A DNA stretch of 64,000 nucleotides from Flavobacteriales bacterium. Its GTDB lineage: Bacteria; Bacteroidota; Bacteroidia; Palsa-965. The translations under genes were made by a program, and so were the position numbers. The stretch spans positions 1-64,000 of the forward strand of contig JBEIPA010000009.1 of NCBI GenBank assembly GCA_040377305.1, read 5' to 3'. This document shows positions 53,202 to 64,000 of the stretch, one piece after another. Under the pieces are notes generated by a model. It searched no databases, had not been told where the DNA came from, and worked only from the letters and a program-made list of their open reading frames with translations. The stretch's first letter is position 1. Every line of letters begins with the position of its first letter.

Positions 53202-54479
53202 CTATGCAACCTTACGTTTGAGTGTAATCACAGTTACCTCAGGCCATATTCCAACCCGCCCGGGGAATCCTAAGAATCCGAAGCCACGATTAACGTACAA
53301 GTGACGTTTGCCTTCGTTGTATAATCCCGCCCAACGCGAGTAACGGAATTGCACCGGACTCCATTTGAGCCATGGTATTTCAACTCCGAATTGCGCACCG
53401 TGCGTGTGTCCGGACATCGTGAGATGAATATCCGTTTCGTGTTTGCTTACGATCTGATCGAAGTGTGACGGATCGTGCGACATCAGTACTTTAAATCCAT
53501 CTTTCGGAATGTTCGCAAGTGCTTTCTCCAGATCGCCTTTTTGTTTGAATCCGCCAGCGCCCCAGTTTTCAACTCCGACGAGATAAATTTTTTGTCCGTC
53601 TTTTTCGAGCGCCACATGTTCATCGCGCATAAGCCTGAATCCGACATCTGCATGCGTCTGATACAGATCGTTCATGTTCTGATCTTTTGCTTGCGGAGAA
53701 TCCCAACTGATGTAATCGCCATAATCGTGGTTACCGAGAACAGAGTATTGTCCGAACGGTGAACGAATCGCGGCGAACTCTTTTTTCCATGGAAGCATTT
53801 CGGTCGCCATGTTGTTCACGAGATCGCCGGTAAACACAAACAAGTCTGATTTCTGATCTTGCGCGAGTCGAATTCCACTGCGAACTTCTTCCAGGTGGTC
53901 ATTCGCATCAAAGCTGCCTGCATGAATATCGCTCAGTTGCGTGATTGTAAATCCGTCAAACGCCTGTGGCAAATCATCGTAGTAAATTGTTTCGCGACGT
54001 ACGCGGTATCTCCATCGACCTGCAATCATTCCATGCGCCACTCCAATGAAAGGAATCAAAGCAATTACACCTGCAGCGCGACTAATGAACTGACGTCGTG
54101 TAATTCCTACCGACATTCCACCCTCTTCACTAATGCTGTTGTATCCCAACGCATAGAGTGCACGTATTCCACGACCGACATCTTCCGCACCCAGAATCAA
54201 CACAATTACCAGTTTCGGAATGAAGAACATAGCCCAAACACCAATGAAAGTCATGATTCCTTTTGGAACAACCTTTTCTTGTGTTCCAAAAAGGGTGAAA
54301 TAACCGAACCACACAAACAGGGAGATATTGATCAACCAATATGCCCAGTGAATGTACTTTCTGGTGCGTGCTTCCATTCCCACCGTCATTGTTTTGACAG
54401 CCGAAAACACGTAAAGATCAATCAGGAGCAATAGTCCTAACATGATCAGCATACCCGTAATACCCGGACCTCTTCGCAT
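53202..54479 (-). CDS. membrane metallophosphoesterase (YkuE-like)
   Basis: SDIH, TGDLVN, GNHD, SHDP, GHTH; TAACTTTG promoter at 54487-54494. Confidence 0.92.
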   Translation of the reverse strand: MRRGPGITGMLIMLGLLLLIDLYVFSAVKTMTVGMEARTRKYIHWAYWLINISLFVWFGYFTLFGTQEKVVPKGIMTFIGVWAMFFIPKLVIVLILGAEDVGRGIRALYALGYNSISEEGGMSVGITRRQFISRAAGVIALIPFIGVAHGMIAGRWRYRVRRETIYYDDLPQAFDGFTITQLSDIHAGSFDANDHLEEVRSGIRLAQDQKSDLFVFTGDLVNNMATEMLPWKKEFAAIRSPFGQYSVLGNHDYGDYISWDSPQAKDQNMNDLYQTHADVGFRLMRDEHVALEKDGQKIYLVGVENWGAGGFKQKGDLEKALANIPKDGFKVLMSHDPSHFDQIVSKHETDIHLTMSGHTHGAQFGVEIPWLKWSPVQFRYSRWAGLYNEGKRHLYVNRGFGFLGFPGRVGIWPEVTVITLKRKVA

Positions 54480-54743
54480 AAGCGCACAAAGTTACATTCG
54501 GGTGGTCGTTTTAACCGCCGGTTTATTTTAATTCGATATGCTTTTGTACATTTTTGACACTATCTGAAGTGGTGAAACGGCTGTTTGTCGGGCTTCTGTC
54601 AGTGGGGTGTGTTTAGCGCTTCAGTAAGATTAAGTATACCATTGCAATAATGTTCGAAGTAGATCATCTTGCTATTAAGACACAAAGTGAGCAGGCAAGA
54701 AGTCAAAGCGTATTTTCCGCCAGAAATCCCCGTCCCGATTTCT

Positions 54744-54751
54744 TACATTTG
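54744..54751 (+). promoter_or_regulatory. Bacteroidota -7 promoter element for the tRNA locus
   Basis: TACATTTG 17 nt upstream of the tRNA 5' fragment. Confidence 0.65.
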
Positions 54752-54768
54752 CCCTCCAAAGTAAATTC

Positions 54769-54814
54769 GCGCCTATAGCTCAGGGGTTAGAGCTCCGGAC
54801 TCATAATCCGTTGG
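54769..54814 (+). pseudogene. 5' fragment of a tRNA-CAT (Ile2-type), lacking the T-arm; candidate attL
   Basis: GCGCCTA-TA-GCTC-AGGGGTTA-GAGC-T-CCGGA-CTCATAA-TCCGT-TGG; no GTTCRA T-loop follows. Confidence 0.8.
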
Positions 54815-54922
54815 AAGAGGAAAAAATAACGGGGATTCCGCATAAAAGGCGCGAAATGTTGAAATGACGGAGAAGAAGTGCTTTGAAGGAGTGCTTCACT
54901 AGAAAAGTGAAAGAATAAAATA

Positions 54923-54996
54923 GGGCCCATAGCTCATTCGGTTAGAGCAGCAGACTCATAATCTGTTGGTGGTCGGTTCGATTCCGACTGGGCCCA
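54923..54996 (+). tRNA. tRNA-Ile2 (anticodon CAT; elongator Met not fully excluded)
   Basis: Complete cloverleaf: acceptor GGGCCCA/TGGGCCC, D-arm, CAT at 54957-54959, GTCGG-TTCGATT-CCGAC, A73; C4-G69 and C5-G68 TilS determinants. Confidence 0.92.
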
Positions 54997-55000
54997 CATT

Positions 55001-55042
55001 AAGGAGAATTCGTTGCAATAGATGCAGCAGGTTCTCCTTTTT
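55001..55042 (+). terminator. intrinsic terminator after the tRNA
   Basis: AAGGAGAA...TTCTCCTT followed by a T-tract. Confidence 0.6.
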
Positions 55043-55175
55043 CATTGGCAGGTTTACCATGGACGAACTTTCCCTGAAAACAATTTTAGAGCTCGGTCTT
55101 GGCTAAAATATTTAGTCCTTTCCGCATGCCACATGGTTTCGATTTACCTTGCATTGTAATCAACCTATATTAAAT

Positions 55176-56135
55176 ATGGCAGGTAGAACAAAAATTCCGC
55201 GCGCGACTGAGAATCAAGTCATGTTTAAGTCCATGGGTTATTGCTACTGCAGGAAACCCGGGGTTCACATTCATCACATTGATTTGGAGAAAACGAATCA
55301 CGACTTCGACAATTTGGTTATGATTTGCTTCGAGCATCACGATGACGCATCTGTAAAAGGTGGATTGAAACGTAGACCAAATGCAACGCAGATTAAAATG
55401 ATGAGAGATCAGTTATACTTAGACAATGACGAAAAGCGTAAGCTTGAACTTGAGCACTATAACAAACAACTCAAAACAGTAAGTCCAAAAAATCTGCGCC
55501 AAGCGGCGATGGATGCGAATATTATTATGAAATGGATTGATTTGCGGGAGGGCTTTTTTGATGAACCCGATTGGGGAAAACGAGGGGAACGATTGTATAA
55601 ATTCCAACGCTATTCAGAATACTCCAGTCTTTACACGAAGCAATATGCTATCAATTTTGCAGTGGAATTATCGAGCTGGACGCGAAATGATATGCCGTGG
55701 GGATTTGCGTATGGAATTGAGTCTCTAATTCTGGATTATTTTCCTTTTTCCGAGGAAGAAGATGATCGTCCGAAGGTTATTGAACTGTGTAAAAAATGTG
55801 CACATGCTGCCGCGAATATCGTGTATGACGCCTCCCTTTATTTAAATGATTTATCCGTGGCGAGTGTTGGATTAGAAATTTTGAAATACGTTTATAGACA
55901 GGGAGTTGAATTAGGGATACGCGAAGTTTCCGATGCTGTGCTAGAAGAATATGTTGATTTAAAACAACACCTTGACCGACCTGAGCGAAATGATCTGACG
56001 GACTCGAAGCGTTTACTGCAAGTGTTCAAAGATGATCTGGATAAACGAGGCTTAGGATTTCCGAACAATATTGATCGTGATTTATGGGAAAAAATATGCG
56101 TTCAGAGAGACGAAAAGAAGATCAAGAGTGTATAG
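55176..56135 (+). CDS. N-terminal HNH endonuclease domain protein
   Basis: CYC...HIHHID...NLVMICFEHH Zn-HNH pattern, then about 240 aa of unknown helical domain; ATG 55176. Confidence 0.75.
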   Translation: MAGRTKIPRATENQVMFKSMGYCYCRKPGVHIHHIDLEKTNHDFDNLVMICFEHHDDASVKGGLKRRPNATQIKMMRDQLYLDNDEKRKLELEHYNKQLKTVSPKNLRQAAMDANIIMKWIDLREGFFDEPDWGKRGERLYKFQRYSEYSSLYTKQYAINFAVELSSWTRNDMPWGFAYGIESLILDYFPFSEEEDDRPKVIELCKKCAHAAANIVYDASLYLNDLSVASVGLEILKYVYRQGVELGIREVSDAVLEEYVDLKQHLDRPERNDLTDSKRLLQVFKDDLDKRGLGFPNNIDRDLWEKICVQRDEKKIKSV

Positions 56136-56144
56136 TGCTACATC

Positions 56145-56852
56145 TTATGGCCTCTTATATATTTCAATTAGCAGCTTAATCAAGGGCACGTAAATATCTT
56201 CTATATCTCGGTCAATGCTTCCGATGGTTCTTCCCTGAAGAAATACGTGTGCATCTACGTTGCGACGCATCAGTTTTAGAACCTCCAGGGAACTAGCAAG
56301 CTCCTCTTGTTCCGTTACACTGATTTTACCAGCTGTTACTAGTTTTGGTATTTCTGTTGAATATATTTTGTGCAGCGTGGGTGTATTTATTTCTAAAGGG
56401 TGTACTATGCCGACACTAAGGAACTGCGACTGCAGCCAAGGATTGTTGTCGCATTTAATATTGAGATTGTTTACGTGAGCGTAGACCTTTTGATATTTGT
56501 TCAGCGTATAGCTTTTGTTGTATGCTTTTGCTTCTTGATACGTATTAAACTGGGTTCGCCTTGGTGGTGGTTTCTTTTTCTTATCATCAAAATCACTGCG
56601 TCGAGAAATTGAAAGTACGCGATGTTTTAATAAAACAGCCTTGGACAGTGTTTCAACGCCTACACCAAATCCGATCCAAAAGAGGTGCGCTTCAACTAGG
56701 TTGTTCATTAGCTCGCCTTGTTTTTTTCGATAGTCGTTGGAAAACGAAATGAGGTCGCTAGAATCAAATTCAAAAATTCCTTTGTACCCGATCAACATTT
56801 TGGCATAGTTAAAGAGGGATTGATCCCACCCGCTGAAATCATGATAAACCAT
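56145..56852 (-). CDS. putative HEPN-domain ribonuclease
   Basis: GVGVETLSKAVL (HEPN ExxxK helix) and RNVDAH (Rx4H); ATG 56852. Confidence 0.6.
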   Translation of the reverse strand: MVYHDFSGWDQSLFNYAKMLIGYKGIFEFDSSDLISFSNDYRKKQGELMNNLVEAHLFWIGFGVGVETLSKAVLLKHRVLSISRRSDFDDKKKKPPPRRTQFNTYQEAKAYNKSYTLNKYQKVYAHVNNLNIKCDNNPWLQSQFLSVGIVHPLEINTPTLHKIYSTEIPKLVTAGKISVTEQEELASSLEVLKLMRRNVDAHVFLQGRTIGSIDRDIEDIYVPLIKLLIEIYKRP

Positions 56853-56938
56853 ATTGTTGTAAGTTGAGATTACAGTTATCCCCTTCGTGATTTTGTTGGT
56901 CGGAGTTATGCTCTCCGGAGGCAACAAAAAAAGAATAT

Positions 56939-57169
56939 ATGGAATCAGAAAACGAAGCTCCTGAGCCAAAACGAAGTCCCCGCAAGGTACAATACATCTT
57001 TTGCAAGAGAAAAAAGAGAATTGTGGCGTTGCCATTAATTCGTCTGTCTGGATATTATCTTGCGGAGTACGGTTTCGGTATTGGAGATGAAATTAATGTC
57101 GCTTACGAAAAAGGTCGTATCACAATAACAAAGACATTGGAGTTTCATCAATGTGAAAAGCCTGGGTAA
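56939..57169 (+). CDS. symE: SymE-family type I toxin
   Basis: LPLIRLSGYYLAEYGFGIGDEINVAYEKGRITI matches the SymE AbrB-fold pattern. Confidence 0.75.
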   Translation: MESENEAPEPKRSPRKVQYIFCKRKKRIVALPLIRLSGYYLAEYGFGIGDEINVAYEKGRITITKTLEFHQCEKPG

Positions 57170-57179
57170 CCAGGCTTTT
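57156..57179. terminator. bidirectional terminator
   Basis: AAAAGCCTGG-GTAA-CCAGGCTTTT between convergent genes. Confidence 0.7.
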
Positions 57180-57237
57180 AACTATTGCTAAGCGAATTGT
57201 ATTTACAAGTCTTTTGAATTATCAATTAATAAACGTT

Positions 57238-57978
57238 TCACTTGTGCCTTGCAGCAGCAGCGGCAATATGTCCGGCAAAAGAGGATACAAATGTGCGCAA
57301 ATCGGTCATGGTTGATAGATCTGAGTAGTCTCCAGTATTGGAGGATGATTTTGAAGAGGCAATGATAGCGGCTGCAGTATATAGTTGTTCCTTCACTAGC
57401 TTTTGACACAAAAGGTCATACCTTTTAAGGTATGACGCACCTTTGAAATCTGGGAAGACTGAATAGTGTGGGGAGACATCTTTGACAATGGATCGAGAGC
57501 CAGGGGCGTCTTCTACCAACATCAGCCAGCCGACAAATGGTCGTGGTTGATCACCAAAAGCACCTTCACGATAAGCAGTCCAAAAGTCATGGGCGGTTCC
57601 TATTGCTTCTTCTGTTCGGTTGTTGAAATTATTTCCAAACGAAGGCCCAACTTGACTCTTTAATTCAATTGCAGCAATTAGCTGTTTGTCATGTATTACT
57701 AGTAAGTCCCACAATTTTGTAGGTCTGAAATAACCGGGCAATGTTAAGACGGAACGTTGCAAGTGCAGACTAGCATGCGCCATTCCATTTGCACGCACAA
57801 TATCAAGAATGAGACTAACAAAGCCATCCATGTTTTTTCCAGAGGTAACACTTCCTCGTTGTCCCCGATCGCTATTGCCAAGCTCTATTTGTTTCAATCG
57901 AGCAGTTTCACGATTACCCCAAAAAGCTTTAACAGCCTCTTTCGCTTTCTTATCATAATCAACAAGATCTAGGCTCAT
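57238..57978 (-). CDS. PaeR7I/XhoI-family type II restriction endonuclease
   Basis: [38 protein letters not shown]. Confidence 0.9.
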
Positions 57979-59684
57979 GGTTTTTTACTAATTAGAATAA
58001 AAGATTCTTCCTCAGTTAGGTGATAGAGAGCAGCGACAGCAATATTACACGACTCAATATCATGATTTTTCGCCGCTTGAATAAGAGCTTTACGAAGATT
58101 TTTTGGAACGTCATTCCATCTCGGTATTCGAATGCGACGCAGATATTGAGCTTGAAAGCGTAAATATCCTCCGCGCATTTTTGTCGAGTATGTCTCAATA
58201 AATGCGTGGGTTACACTGGACAGTAACACGGCTTGAAGCGCTCTCAGATCCCATTCCCTAGAAGTAATATAATAGAGATTATGATGTGGGTAGACTCTTC
58301 CAGAGTCATATACAACATTTGCTTCTCCCTTAATATCAGGGATTAATAGTTTAGGTGTTGTAGTTAATGCTGGATGAATTTTATCGATCGTTCGATACCA
58401 ATTTTTTGGATTCTTTTTTGCGCAATGTCTACCGGCAATCATTTCTTTTCGCTGATGCAGATATTGCTTTAATTTCTTGAACTTTTTTAAATCAACTAAT
58501 TCCCCATTTTGATCAAATGGATTGATAACCCCAAGTCCTTGCCACTTGACCTTCCCTGAAATGATATCCTTGGTTGTCCCAAGCGGCAATTTTCGAGAGG
58601 GCTCTACTCTCAATTTATCGAAGTATCCAATAAAAGCCTTGTCGGCCCCAGTTGCAACCCCAATACCAACTTTGCATCCTGTTTCTTCAAGTAATGGCAA
58701 AGATTGCTCAAGGCGACGTATGATGTCAATTTTTGCATGAGAATGCATCAGCCAAGGTTCTACACCATTAGCTACGTTAGAAAGTTCCTTGATGGAACTT
58801 GAAGCTCCTAATTTCTTTGCTAGTAATTCCTTGGCTAGTAAGGAAAGTTCAGCTTTATTGATTCGCGGGCGAAATACGATTCGAGTATATTTTGACTTTG
58901 TGCGAGCAATAATAGTGATTGCGGGGTATGCAATAACATCACTCTCAAATGCACGCGTATCCATCATATCAATATACACTTTCAAATGAAAATCTTTTGA
59001 AACGAAAGCACGTAAAGGACCACCATATCGATTTTTCATCCATCGATCCGCGCAGATGAAACCAAGCTCACCCTTCTGCGTTAGAAGCGATAATGAACGC
59101 TCAATAAAAGGTATGTATAGGTCGGCTCGATCGTATATTGTAGGATATAGTTTTCGATACTTAGCCATCAACTTAGGAGCAATCGATTCTTGGCGAACAT
59201 ATGGAGGATTGCCAACAACGAAATCAAACCTGCCGCCTACACTAGTGAGCAGAAAGTCGTCGTTTATCAGCCAGCGTTGCGTTAACACTTGCGCCGAGCT
59301 CGCACTCACCCCTTTGTTTTGCAATAACTTTGAGATCTTCCTACGGGTTGTTAGAAAAGTTTCGTTATCCAATTCTACTGCGCAAATAGAATCTCCTAAA
59401 TCCGTTACAATATTTTCACTTGTACGATGTTTATCCCAGGAATTAATGAGTCGCTCGATGATCGGAATCAAGAATGCACCTTCACCAAATGACGGTTCTA
59501 ATATTCGCTTAGTAAAGAGTGGTTGATCTTCAGTATAGCCGACTAGATCAAGAATAAATGTAACAACTTCGTGACGCGTAAATATCGCACCACGATCCAC
59601 AGTGCTTTTGAGGTACGCGGTCGGGAGAGAAGCAGTTTCCAAAATTGTGAGTCGAGTTTGGGCTTTTAGATCAATAAGTGGCAT
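57975..59684 (-). CDS. gamma-class N6-adenine DNA methyltransferase (M.PaeR7I/TaqI-like)
   Basis: Motif [11 protein letters not shown] precedes motif IV GNPPY; [16 protein letters not shown]; ATGA overlap with the REase. Confidence 0.92.
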
Positions 59685-59779
59685 AAAGGTAAATAGTATT
59701 ATACCCTTGACTGCTAGGGAATCAAAATTTCAAGTAACATTTCGTAAGCGTCCTAATGCTTCGGACTGCCTCTCCACAT

Positions 59780-60604
59780 TTACATTGGGAAATTGGCTGT
59801 AAGGACTTCAATCTTTCTCCTATTGTTTTTCGACGCGCCGGGCACCGATAAACTCATTTCGATAGTTTTGGTCTTCCATTTCCCCTTTCGAGAATATTTC
59901 TCCAGTAAGTCCGAAGGATAGCTGGAAAGAATAAATTTTCCTTTGATTTTAGACAATACAACCAGGAGGTGTTCAAAGTCAGCACGTGTATAACCGCCAT
60001 AATGCCCCATAGCGGAGTTAAAATAAGGAGGGTCGAGGTAGAAGAAGGCTTTAGGGTTGTCGCGCGTTAAAACGACCTCGAGCGCGTCACGACATTCGAT
60101 CTGTACGCGTTCGAGGCGGTCGGCATACGTTTTGGCGAACGATATTTTTTTGGAGTGGAACTTGCGCTCAGAGGTACTATCCTGTACTCCACAAGACCAG
60201 GTGCTGTCTAGGATAGAACTGTATGATTGCATCGCCATGACATATACTGCCCAAGCGCGTTCGATGTTGGTGAAGAGATGCGGATTTGAATAGATGAAGC
60301 GAGCTTTAAAGTGTAACCCTCGGCTATGCAACGTTGCGCCGATCTCCTTTTTCAATTTGGGAAATTCTGTTTTCACCGTTCGGTAGAAATTTATTACTTC
60401 CCCGTTCAGATCATTTACGACTTCAATCTTCGATGGTGGCTTGGCGAATAGAATTGCACCGCCGCCAAAGAACGGTTCACAGTACAATTCATGCTTCGGA
60501 ATAAGTGGCAGTATGGTCGGCACTAATTTCTGTTTGCCGCCGTAGTAGGTAAGAAGGGCTTTCACGACTTTAGAGATCGCGACCGCATTCGCGATCCTGA
60601 TCAT
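59780..60604 (-). CDS. D12-class (Dam-like) DNA adenine methylase
   Basis: YYGGKQKL, EPFFGGGA, NDLN, YLDPPY; true start may be GTG 60565. Confidence 0.92.
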   Translation of the reverse strand: MIRIANAVAISKVVKALLTYYGGKQKLVPTILPLIPKHELYCEPFFGGGAILFAKPPSKIEVVNDLNGEVINFYRTVKTEFPKLKKEIGATLHSRGLHFKARFIYSNPHLFTNIERAWAVYVMAMQSYSSILDSTWSCGVQDSTSERKFHSKKISFAKTYADRLERVQIECRDALEVVLTRDNPKAFFYLDPPYFNSAMGHYGGYTRADFEHLLVVLSKIKGKFILSSYPSDLLEKYSRKGKWKTKTIEMSLSVPGASKNNRRKIEVLTANFPM

Positions 60605-60782
60605 AAAGACTTGTAATTGTCAGACCATCCTCCATTGCCATTTTGACGATTGAGGTATACAGAAGTTGTTCTTTAGCGTGCTTGAACACGCGATGTATTT
60701 CTTCAGCTGAAAAATCCTTGATTTTATTTTTGCGCATGAGGTTGAATGCACTTTGCTTCATGCGCTCATAAGGTGTTGGCAT
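60570..60782 (-). CDS. small hypothetical protein
   Basis: 70-aa ORF packed in the island operon. Confidence 0.55.
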   Translation of the reverse strand: MPTPYERMKQSAFNLMRKNKIKDFSAEEIHRVFKHAKEQLLYTSIVKMAMEDGLTITSLYDQDRECGRDL

Positions 60783-60829
60783 TGATGTGGTTTGATTGCC
60801 CTTTTAAGGGCCTTATTTTTTGTAAGAAT

Positions 60830-61276
60830 TTATTTTGTAGGAGTTTCTTTTGTTATGCGCATTTTGTGCGCAAGTTGAGCGCAGAGTTTGCCGAACTCAG
60901 GAGAAAAATCTGCGCAGGGTGTTTCGCTTTCCCCAGAGTTTTCCCCTGTGCTATCCACAGCGATGCGATAGTAGAGTCGGGTCTTCCCTTTTCGGTCATT
61001 GGGTGTGTGCAATACTCGACCATGATCATCAGCTACAAGGATGAGATTACGGTATGTAAGTGAACGGACTGCACTGCCAACAGCGCGACGAGATAATCCG
61101 GTCTTCTTATGGAATTGCGATGCGGAAATCCAGTCATACACTTTACGCTTCTCGCTCTTAGCATCTTTCCAGCCTAGGGTTTGGCGCAGGATGATTAGAT
61201 AGAGCTTCAGTTCAGCTTCTGAGAGTGACGGGATATATTCAAATACCGCATTCGGAACGGGTGTTGTTTTTATCAT
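60830..61276 (-). CDS. replication protein O-like HTH protein
   Basis: TTPVPNAVFE..LSEAELKLYLIILRQTLGW..DWISASQFHKKTGLSRRAV. Confidence 0.7.
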   Translation of the reverse strand: MIKTTPVPNAVFEYIPSLSEAELKLYLIILRQTLGWKDAKSEKRKVYDWISASQFHKKTGLSRRAVGSAVRSLTYRNLILVADDHGRVLHTPNDRKGKTRLYYRIAVDSTGENSGESETPCADFSPEFGKLCAQLAHKMRITKETPTK

Positions 61277-61312
61277 GCGAGGGTGACTTAGTGATGAAGG
61301 AATACTAAAGAA

Positions 61313-61528
61313 CTACTGAGGCAATTCTGTATTCGTGTCCGCATCGATGTCTGGGAGTTTCTCCTCCGTGTCGAAGAAGTAATACCTGACGCTTGGATTC
61401 TGATACAGGCGCATGAACATTCTTCCGGTGGCTTCATCGACATGGAGTTCACCGGTCCTGTAATACTTTCTTTTTTGCTCTCCGTCCTTTTCATAATCGG
61501 CGCGAGTCGCGATGTGAAATATTCGCAT
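61313..61528 (-). CDS. small hypothetical protein
   Basis: 71-aa ORF with AT-rich leader, co-oriented with the replication gene. Confidence 0.65.
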   Translation of the reverse strand: MRIFHIATRADYEKDGEQKRKYYRTGELHVDEATGRMFMRLYQNPSVRYYFFDTEEKLPDIDADTNTELPQ

Positions 61529-61618
61529 AGAATTATTTTATTAATACTTGATAATGCAGACGAGCGAGCAAGAAAAAGGCCTCGCTTTTAACGAGGCTTT
61601 AATCCAACATGCTATTTA

Positions 61619-61714
61619 CTAAATGAGTTCCCCTGCTTTTATCACATGCTCCACCAGCGTATACGTGTACCCCATTTCATTACGATACCACGTGAGCAAT
61701 TTCTGCTTCAACAT
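61619..61714 (-). CDS. 31-aa leaderless small ORF (MLKQKLLTWYRNEMGYTYTLVEHVIKAGELI), not in ORF track
   Basis: TGCTATAAT 6 nt upstream of the ATG; terminator GCCTCG..CGAGGC-TTTTT at 61573-61597. Confidence 0.5.
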   Translation of the reverse strand: MLKQKLLTWYRNEMGYTYTLVEHVIKAGELI

Positions 61715-61907
61715 GAATCGATTATAGCACATTGTATTAGAACCTCGCGGCTCGTCTGCGCAGTACAGAACCCACTTGTTTCCGCACTACGCACGCAAGC
61801 CGAGGAATATTGTCAATAAACTCTTGTTATTTTCTCACCAGTAGAACAAAAAAACAAGCGTGAGATTTGTTATCCCACACTTGTTTTCCTTTGGCAAATT
61901 GCCAGAT

Positions 61908-62984
61908 TTAATTTCGAACCCAGCGGCCAGTGCGAGAAGTCTTTACTGTCACCGGACGAATCTGACTTCTTACCAAACTATGAATAGGTCGCTTGTGTTC
62001 TGGAAACATTAATGCTCTTGATGGTGCTTTGTAGAGTGGATTTCCTCTCTTCTTCATCACCTGCACCCACTGTCGTTTCAATTCTTCTCCGAAGAGCATA
62101 GTGTACACCCAGGAGCTATCAAGACTTGCATGACCAAGCTGATTTGATACAGCAGAGTTGTCATGCAAAGTTTGAATTGTGTCTCGTCCGAAAGAATGCC
62201 TAATTGAGTGTGCATTGGTTACCACTGGAAAACCTGCTTTGTTAGAAAGCATGCGCATCATTTCCGCGATTCCTCGTGGGGTCATCCGCGAACCGCGAAT
62301 TGCGCTTCCCGGAGATTTTGTTATCGTAGTAAACAGTGCTTCCGAATGCTGAAATGTGAATTTCTTCTGCAGTTCGTTTTTCTTTTTCAACCAGCGCTTA
62401 ATCGCCTTTCCAGTTTCCGTAGTCCAGTAGATTTCTCTGACAGGACGGCGACCACGAGATTTTTCCGTTTTTATGAAGGCCGATCCCGATCCGTCTGACT
62501 TGAATTTTAAGTTCTCATCGTCGATCATGCACAATTCACCGCTACGCGCACCTGTATCCCAAAGGAGAAGCAAAAATGCTCGATTGCGAATGTAGTTGGG
62601 ATGATTTGTCCGAGAAGGAATCTGAGCTAGAAGTTTTCTGAAATCCTTGATATTGGACACTCGTGGAATATTGAATTCCTTTTCCCTAACTGGGATCAGT
62701 TGCTCACTAAACGCAACATTGTAACCTCTGAGATGACAGAATTCGAAGAATTTTTTGAGTGCAATTCCAACGAGATTCATGCCATTTGGCTTCCATCCGA
62801 GACGTTCAAGTTCTTTGAAGTACCAGATAATATGGGGAAGATCTACTTCCTCCAGCATCATATCCTGCATACACAGGCAAAAAATTCTAAGCGTAATCAG
62901 GTACCGCGACGCTGTTTTATGCGAACGCGGTCCCTTGGAACTCCTAAGTGATATAAATTCTTGTATTGCTTGACTTAATGACAT
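61908..62984 (-). CDS. tyrosine recombinase/integrase
   Basis: RNRAFLLLLWDTGARSGEL (R), KTEK (K), HSIRH (HxxR), LGHASLDSSWVY (H, Y); ATG 62984 preferred over 63029. Confidence 0.92.
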   Translation of the reverse strand: MSLSQAIQEFISLRSSKGPRSHKTASRYLITLRIFCLCMQDMMLEEVDLPHIIWYFKELERLGWKPNGMNLVGIALKKFFEFCHLRGYNVAFSEQLIPVREKEFNIPRVSNIKDFRKLLAQIPSRTNHPNYIRNRAFLLLLWDTGARSGELCMIDDENLKFKSDGSGSAFIKTEKSRGRRPVREIYWTTETGKAIKRWLKKKNELQKKFTFQHSEALFTTITKSPGSAIRGSRMTPRGIAEMMRMLSNKAGFPVVTNAHSIRHSFGRDTIQTLHDNSAVSNQLGHASLDSSWVYTMLFGEELKRQWVQVMKKRGNPLYKAPSRALMFPEHKRPIHSLVRSQIRPVTVKTSRTGRWVRN

Positions 62985-63210
62985 AAATGCAAAATACCGC
63001 CGGGACACGGCGGTATTTGCTTCGTTCATAGGTTGCCCTAAAAACTAGCCATTGGGATTTCCCAATGGCACGAACAGCATAGCACGCTTTTTCAGAATAT
63101 TAAAGAAAAAGTCAAACCTACTGTGCGCAATTACCGTTGTGTCCCAATTCCTCGCGGAATCGCTCCTTTCAGAGCAACGATTGTCCCTAATTGCTAATGT
63201 GCACGATGAA

Positions 63211-63239
63211 ACTTTATCACTTTATATCTCTCTTGTCAA
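63211..63239 (-). promoter_or_regulatory. canonical sigma70-type promoter upstream of the integrase
   Basis: TTGACA-17 nt-TAAAGT with TG extension on the minus strand. Confidence 0.6.
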
Positions 63240-63288
63240 GAGCCTCGGAAATTCATCTTTATTTTTTCTTGATCTCAAAAATTTAGCA

Positions 63289-63678
63289 TCACCAAATAAT
63301 TTTGTACTTCAACTTCTCTAATGTTTCGTTTACGTTGAACGACGGTAAGAGATGTCCATCTTTCAATTCAGTCACGCGATATACGCGCTCATTGGTGATT
63401 TCGTATTTCAATCCGTACACCCGTTTCGGATTGTAGTAAAGAAAAAGATAAATCTCGTTCTCCTTCATCCTGAAAGTGAGATACACGTCTATCCATTCGT
63501 ATACGCGTTCTCGATACGGAATGACATATCGATTCTCCTGACTGATCTTCCAAAGAATTCCAAAATATCCATGCTGGTCCGGAATCGCGCAGATAGCAGG
63601 AAGTATTCCAACCGCTCTATTGAAGTCACGGATCGCGCCATCCAAGTACCGCGTCAACCGCATCTCGTCCATCATCAT
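63289..63678 (-). CDS. hypothetical protein
   Basis: 129-aa ORF co-oriented with neighbours. Confidence 0.6.
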   Translation of the reverse strand: MMMDEMRLTRYLDGAIRDFNRAVGILPAICAIPDQHGYFGILWKISQENRYVIPYRERVYEWIDVYLTFRMKENEIYLFLYYNPKRVYGLKYEITNERVYRVTELKDGHLLPSFNVNETLEKLKYKIIW

Positions 63679-63706
63679 GCCGTCTATGTTTTCTCGTTGT
63701 ATTCAT

Positions 63707-64000
63707 TCAGTAGTTGTCCGATCGTCCCTTGATGATCGTTGTATAGAGATCGGCGCTTTTATCTGAAGGTGGGTGCACGAATGCCACGCCGTAAATTTCT
63801 CTTTCGAAAAGATGACTTGCAAGGTCATTACGTCGCAGTTTTCTTCCGTCTTGCAGTGTGTTGGGAATCTGTTTTTCTTCACCGAGCGTATCAAGATAAA
63901 CCGCCCAGGGGTGTAGTTCCGTATACAAATGCCCCCATACCGTTTCGTGCCTTTTCCATTCTGGAGCTATTCCTTCCATTGCGAGTTCAGCTTTTGAAGC
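63707..64000 (-). CDS. hypothetical protein, 3' part (open to the window edge)
   Basis: Frame has no stop between 63979 and 64000. Confidence 0.5.
   Translation of the reverse strand, partial: ASKAELAMEGIAPEWKRHETVWGHLYTELHPWAVYLDTLGEEKQIPNTLQDGRKLRRNDLASHLFEREIYGVAFVHPPSDKSADLYTTIIKGRSDNY

Follow-up and report, generated by a model that had tools for sequence, protein, structure and literature searches.

A mobilizable Bacteroidota island splits its host's tRNA-Ile2 gene at the anticodon loop and carries a whole, likely compensating tRNA-Ile2 gene

The window, a stretch of 64,000 nucleotides, comprises positions 1 to 64000 of contig C46 of a 5.18 Mb genome in 60 contigs that is rated 99.99% complete. 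Beginning from the left flank, it contains a host metallophosphoesterase gene (53202-54479, reverse strand, PF00149) that lies outside the island; and then, all on the forward strand, a Bacteroidota-type -7 promoter box with the sequence TACATTTG (54744-54751), presumed functional by its fit to the TAnnTTTG consensus given for this phylum in PMC9723704; the 5' half of the host tRNA-Ile2(CAT) gene (54769-54814), consisting of the acceptor 5' strand, the D and anticodon arms and the start of the variable loop; a 108 bp island-side spacer (54815-54922) with two arm-like AGTGCT repeats 13 bp apart (54877 and 54890); a complete tRNA-Ile2(CAT) gene carried by the island (54923-54997; called by ARAGORN, Rfam 70.5 bits); and a terminator-like hairpin with a T run (55001-55042). 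Half and whole gene are identical in 38 of 47 aligned columns. Against the Rfam tRNA model only the D and anticodon arms of the half match (54778-54811), at 18.3 bits, below the gathering score of 29. C27.U43 is unpaired in the host 5' half, which may point to slight decay, although relatives have mismatches at 27-43 in their intact genes too. The original prediction had described box, half, spacer and whole gene accurately by the sequence, ARAGORN and Rfam; its terminator is visible as the hairpin and T run at 55001-55042, but a terminator scan did not call it.

Genome-wide search locates the other part of the split gene. The last 19 bp of the half (54796-54814, the attL core), a direct repeat spanning the anticodon loop CTCATAA (54800-54806), recur exactly at C46:96250-96268 (the attR core), beyond the window; this copy is the best non-self BLAST match in the 5.2-Mb genome (E 0.001), and the distance between the two repeats is 41,454 bp. 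An 11-mer of the anticodon arm has three copies in the genome, in the 5' half, the whole gene and the far end. The far copy runs straight into a T arm and an acceptor strand able to pair with the 5' half, and this orphan 3' half ends at 96295. Joining the 5' half in silico with the contig from 96261 onward yields a 74-nt tRNA-CAT in ARAGORN with a fully paired acceptor stem (7/7 pairs), while ARAGORN calls no tRNA at any of attL, attR and attP. The missing 3' half that the original prediction proposed to seek is accordingly present on the same contig, at the island's right end (96250-96295).

The island occupies 54796-64000 of the window and continues on C46, in the same numbering, to 96268, with a G+C content of 43.3% against 45.8% in the 40 kb on either side. 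Its cargo includes a type II restriction-modification pair, an XhoI-family endonuclease with its methyltransferase (57238-59684, reverse strand). This is followed by a conserved left module (59780-63029, reverse strand) of a D12 adenine methylase, a replication-O-like protein and a second tyrosine recombinase (61908-63029), which has homologues in sister elements (methylase 71-74% in G016, G024 and G272; recombinase 43% and O-like protein 68% in G016). Further along the contig, again on the reverse strand, are Gabija GajA/GajB (74836-78632), a relaxase and type IV coupling protein (81037-83835) and a 470 residue tyrosine integrase (87215-88627), whose relatives are mostly Bacteroidota records and which appears to lack one residue of the family consensus immediately ahead of the invariant G-R-R motif. 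Two large exported-looking proteins at C46:64128-69790, one with a type IX secretion tail, partly resemble the N-terminal domain of the flanking OmpA-family protein. No phage structural families were found among 22 island ORFs searched against PHROGs or 39 against Pfam, a scan that covered all but a few small ORFs, and no mating-pair (type IV secretion) families among the 39, in which only the coupling protein and relaxase could be named; several ORFs neighbouring these two match no Pfam family. Judged by its gene content (integrase, relaxase and coupling protein, bounded by att repeats, without mating-pair genes), the island is a non-phage, integrative mobilizable element.

Counted inward from the anticodon loop, the AGTGCT repeats of the spacer are at 71 and 84 bp at the left end, and their counterparts (contig 96162 and 96175) at 78 and 91 bp at the right, with none within 300 bp outside either island end. 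Two such motifs per 108-bp window occur in 44 of 47,884 genome windows, and the elements in G024, G272 and G016 have the same motif 79-95 bp in from their right ends. Lambda-type integrases bind arm sites, and by analogy we read the repeats as predicted integrase arm sites; on that reading the spacer would be the element's att arm, and the whole tRNA gene would therefore lie inside the element. The choice of the 470 residue integrase over the second recombinase as the probable catalyst is based only on homology and arm motifs.

ARAGORN identifies 52 tRNA genes in the genome, three of them with a CAT anticodon. According to the discriminators tabulated in PMC1635315, G3/C70, C4-G69 and C5-G68 mark isoleucine tRNA-CAT genes, C3-G70 marks Met and fMet, and A11-T24 marks fMet. 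The island's gene at 54923 and the rejoined split gene both have G3-C70, C4-G69 and C5-G68 and are the only two of Ile2 type; there is no other intact Ile2-CAT gene among the genome's three tRNA-CAT genes, so that the ARAGORN count leaves the 54923 gene as the only intact one. It is identical in 75 of 75 bases to a stand-alone chromosomal gene of the congener G007. In this tRNA U15 and G48 replace the usual G15-C48 tertiary pair, as they also do in the chromosomal Ile2 genes of G007 and G015. The genome encodes tilS (TIGR02432, 201.5 bits), and AUA makes up 8,855 of 1,338,702 codons in 2,903 crude ORFs of at least 200 residues, at least one AUA being present in 2,457 of these ORFs; the island uses AUA at double this rate (112 of 8,749 codons).

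The reading we favour, with a probability of roughly 0.87, is that a 41,454-bp non-phage island inserted in the host tRNA-Ile2 gene, split it at the 19-bp anticodon-loop repeat, and carries the only intact Ile2-type gene, which likely compensates for the split one, its transcription probably starting at the host promoter ahead of the 5' half. The presence of the 3' half at the far end, together with the lack of another intact Ile2-CAT gene in the genome, bears out the earlier proposal that the island disrupts rather than restores tRNA-Ile2 and brings a whole substitute. The 470 residue integrase would recombine a circular form with the anticodon loop, the attP of the circle consisting of a short core and arm repeats without a tRNA 3' end. 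Transcription from the host promoter would then yield a single RNA comprising half, spacer and whole gene, which RNase P would trim in keeping with textbook tRNA processing, and TilS would add the lysidine that allows AUA to be read. Precise excision should restore the host gene, which means that the element would not be addictive in the toxin-antitoxin sense; only left-end deletions made without recombination would leave a cell lacking Ile2.

The best surviving alternative, which we regard as improbable, accepts the split and holds that the island tRNA is dispensable cargo, AUA being read by another tRNA without any compensation. It draws on a tRNA-Ile(TAT) gene, with the anticodon UAU, at C7:92434-92507 in a separate 15-gene array, and on the report that a UAU tRNA reads AUA in some bacteria (PMC3575796); the tRNA-Ile(UAU) of this genome could in principle do so, which counts against strict essentiality of the island tRNA. 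The array (C7:88552-97060) has its 15 tRNAs among two RtcB genes, a TROVE gene, a WYL regulator, an RNA ligase and an RF-1-domain gene, and resembles stress-inducible tRNA arrays, which in Anabaena are described as generally silent and stress-induced (PMC8421152). This setting speaks against the alternative, as do the presence of tilS and the fact that other genomes, too, have same-isotype genes next to split Ile2 and Met genes. The 'addiction' of the original prediction consequently holds at most for imprecise loss of the island end, weakened as it is by the rebuilding of the gene on precise excision and by the UAU tRNA of the separate array.

Another explanation takes the whole tRNA for the native gene of the host, restored by an island of the ordinary kind, and sees in the upstream half an older relic or a partial duplicate; it is very unlikely and at this locus largely refuted. 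Partial tandem 5' halves of other origin do occur in the class, interrupted by palindromes (G362, G412), and arm repeats lie downstream of the whole gene in the elements of G024, G272, G298 and G351, both as this explanation would have it; in this island, however, the arm repeats precede the whole gene. The far-end 3' half pairs with the 5' half in all seven acceptor pairs but clashes with the island's whole gene (G2.G71 and A29.C41, read off the sequence), and a genome-wide search found no 3' duplicate of the whole gene. We also compared 25 metallophosphoesterase loci of congeners. Ten have one intact tRNA-CAT gene within 350 bp upstream, in the divergent arrangement of the window, two (one of them in G012) have it reversed, and 13 lack a tRNA-CAT in 1.5 kb, three of these 13 being cut by contig ends; none of the 25 has a tRNA fragment. 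The comparison with island-free relatives suggested in the original prediction thus agrees with a split of a formerly intact gene, 10 of 25 loci having one intact gene and none the fragment. In the 8 stretches examined, no island-free genome had the metallophosphoesterase and OmpA genes directly flanking the tRNA.

The original prediction had offered, as its own alternative, that the half and spacer form a functional T-arm-less tRNA-like RNA closed by pairing at 54847-54852, a notion we find about as improbable as the preceding one. A fold of 54769-54855 that includes this pairing does reach -26.9 kcal/mol (z -1.99, with 7 of 200 shuffles doing as well), but extension to 54910 lowers the z-score to -1.25, the candidate 3' strand is 12 nt out of tRNA register and has no T-loop motif, the spacers of related elements share neither the pairing nor the sequence, and the true partner of the half sits 41 kb off. 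Since the spacer repeats match the far end, the idea is also unnecessary. A decayed 3' half inside the spacer was likewise considered and rejected, being off register and without a T loop.

A further check of the left junction used a second assembly, the Logan contigs of a possible source run, which is not independent DNA. One contig (depth 17.7) covers 54300-54969 without differences, and the next (depth 15.3) overlaps it and runs on into the cargo. The least credible explanation, an assembly chimera of two organisms at the tRNA, can point to the break of the Logan contigs inside the whole gene, tRNA genes being common assembly break points, but it is unlikely at the left junction, where the second assembly runs without differences from the host gene through half and spacer into most of the whole gene; nor would mis-joining give a single contig whose two ends carry halves that match and the arm repeats as well. 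No excision joint is listed among the Logan contigs at the left end, in a contig set that drops rare variants.

That the whole tRNA is expressed behind the same host promoter as the half is plausible, and the case for it comes from the spacer (54815-54922), where neither a TAnnTTTG box nor any of the variants tested was found and the terminator scan made no call. Co-transcription from the host promoter is what these two absences suggest. The spacers of the elements in G013, G024 and G433 have a TAnnTTTG box of their own. Most tRNA genes of the genome lack an exact TAnnTTTG within 120 bp, and the spacer may hold a weak promoter; a sigma-70 promoter scan carries no information for Bacteroidota. 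At the right end, a box at contig 96232-96239 points outward and would sit upstream of the tRNA in the circle. Such a box is expected 0.007 times per 30 bp, a figure to be read knowing that the box drew attention only in hindsight and shows no clear conservation. The hexamer GTTCTT occurs in most half-to-whole spacers (G011, G013, G024, G272, L160, L161, L165), and the window's spacer has no more than a near match, which overlaps an arm repeat; we take it to resemble the boxA antitermination motif, which would fit co-transcription.

A possible reason for carrying a whole gene lies in the acceptor stem. All 15 distinct GGG-starting Ile2-type genes that we collected, in a set from which genes not starting G-N-G were filtered out, end with C71, which would mismatch with C2 of this host's 5' half; a typical donor 3' half would thus give a mismatched hybrid tRNA. 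A whole tRNA on board would probably remove the need for a 3' half that fits the host.

Homologues of the integrase adjoin Leu, Met, Ile2, Asn, Phe and Arg tRNA genes, and judged by these neighbours the integrase family is one that targets tRNA genes. Some members restore their target, leaving the gene intact with a full 3' duplicate: those in this same genome (G000, contig C30) and in G016 at tRNA-Asn, and that in G015 at tRNA-Ile2. The C30 element (C30:56777-99574) is a second, 43-kb member of the family (integrase 27%, coupling protein 43%, relaxase 43%) that integrated classically at tRNA-Asn, with a full 3' duplicate and arm repeats of its own.

For arrangements like that of the window, 401 genomes of the class were searched for two CAT 5' halves within 260 bp, a pattern with no matches in a reversed control. 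This looser pattern was used instead of a strict tandem one that found 2 of the 401 (this genome and G362) and missed G024; a loose pattern run over five genomes gave matches mostly by chance. Ten of the 401 genomes match, among them this one and 4 of 13 others of its family, and a phylum-wide draw gave 2 of 301, one being this genome and the other G511. The pattern of half and whole gene is patchy across the phylum.

Each of the nine other class loci has one whole gene preceded by a half. Five of the nine also have an orphan 3' half that gives a tRNA when joined to the 5' half, the shared cores around the loop measuring 7-15 bp; the orphan is on the same contig in G024, G298 and G351 and on another in G272 and G433. 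In G024, G272, G298 and G433 the half forms its anticodon stem with the orphan, and the whole gene has a compensatory stem of its own; by these pairings half and orphan belong together in the four genomes, and the whole gene is separate and self-consistent. G351 is ambiguous, as either copy could be the junction. Integrases of this family are carried by G024, G298 and G351 (58%, 27% and 27%), and in the elements of G024 and G272 the sequences of both junctions part no more than a few bases from the anticodon loop. The search found no 3' half for G011 and G301, nor for G013, a locus that came to light separately, and a degenerate candidate only for G418. Neither was a related integrase found at G011 and G013, where half and whole gene remain; the arm-like repeats of G011 give way to genes of ordinary appearance, as a scar would show.

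Several other loci were noted along the way. At G418:C88:2898-3090 (reverse strand) the 5' half of an elongator tRNA-Met is followed after 78 nt by a whole tRNA-Met, arm repeats and a 27% integrase homologue. Beside another integrase homologue, locus L072 (11456-12017, reverse strand) has a tRNA-Leu(TAA) 5' half and then a whole Leu gene with an anticodon insert that resembles a group I intron. Four tRNA-Ile2 3' ends occur within 6 kb at G024:C19:80073-85750, a site of repeated insertion, with an extra tRNA-Lys(CTT) inside the element. In L165 (G301) and L167 (G412) a 500-residue ORF resembling a large serine recombinase ends on the opposite strand inside the 3' end of a tRNA-Met.

Not every match is of this kind. 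Partial tandem tRNA 5' ends broken by short palindromes were seen at L168 (G362), L167 (G412), L235 (G511), L134 and L060, the G362 copy beside a small nuclease-like ORF, and are a different source of half and whole patterns. As candidates for tRNA replacement, the loci of G362 and G412 were dropped, being probable partial duplications linked to palindromes, and left out of the 3'-half search; G511 was rejected as well, looking from the matched text alone like a palindrome-interrupted duplicate.

A quick tree of 32 integrases places this element, that of G024 and the restoring element of G016 in one clade with a support of 100. On this tree the six replacing or half-and-whole rows need four changes, three of them forced by well-supported branches, and 30 of 500 shuffles are as low, which suggests repeated origin or loss of the replacing strategy. 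With restoring and replacing members so closely related, the switch between the strategies can be studied in one family.

A more speculative proposal, which we rate at clearly less than even odds, sees the element family as a shuttle that permanently swaps tRNA-Ile2 between species. The whole tRNA behind the att site would admit hosts that misfit its 3' half; it would be expressed from the captured promoter when integrated and from the right-end box when circular; and after decay of the island the foreign tRNA would stay as the only copy, as may be the case in G011 and G013. The identity of the island's gene to that of a congener in any event points to a route by which an essential tRNA gene may move between species and become fixed. 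Programs that look for islands by an intact gene followed by a duplicated tRNA 3' end would overlook elements of this kind or place them wrongly.

Among the closest known elements are the classically restoring sisters in C30, G016 and G015, with the same integrase, coupling protein and relaxase family and a crossover in or near the anticodon loop. Classical restoring islands duplicate the whole 3' half and leave an intact gene at attL, whereas this element does neither. NBU2 is a likely non-restoring precedent from Bacteroides. In the open-licence literature we found no paper on tRNA-replacing elements in Bacteroidota. Outside the phylum, the Pasteurellaceae ICEs in tRNA-Leu, as described in PMC6028734, likewise have an anticodon-loop core at both ends and an intact tRNA copy at the element end, but they belong to another phylum and isotype and are conjugative, with the tRNA beside parA, while here the scanned ORFs hold no mating-pair genes. 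Prophages of Sinorhizobium meliloti in tRNA-Leu(UAG) share the att site in the central tRNA, the inactivated gene and a similar tRNA on the element; by the account in PMC11476347 their substitute tRNA is similar to genes from unrelated species, in contrast to the island's, which is identical to the gene of a congener. A close parallel is the tRNA-dependent lysogeny of actinobacteriophages (Guerrero-Bustamante and Hatfull 2024, PMC10865867), in which, as here, a tyrosine integrase uses an attB in a single-copy tRNA gene, among them tRNA-Ile2-CAT as the target of the Gordonia phages OneUp and Mollymur. As set out there, the phage cores are of 8-17 bp (19 bp here), no tRNA is present at attL or attR in either system, and the phages carry the cognate tRNA, on which their integrants depend for survival, as the island carries one of the split gene's kind (CAT, G3-C70, C4-G69, C5-G68). 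Both groups have close relatives that restore the tRNA, the phage ones in that account carrying none. The island differs from these phages in its non-phage content (relaxase, coupling protein, defence cargo) and Bacteroidota host, and in the placement of its tRNA 108 bp inside attL, co-oriented with the host promoter, whereas that of Fionnbharth is described as lying on the opposite strand over gene 37 with its own promoter (PMC10865867). The island is a well-supported case of tRNA replacement, a principle known from phages and conjugative elements; what is new is the Bacteroidota host group and the element family, by which this mode of integration is extended to mobilizable, defence-carrying islands.
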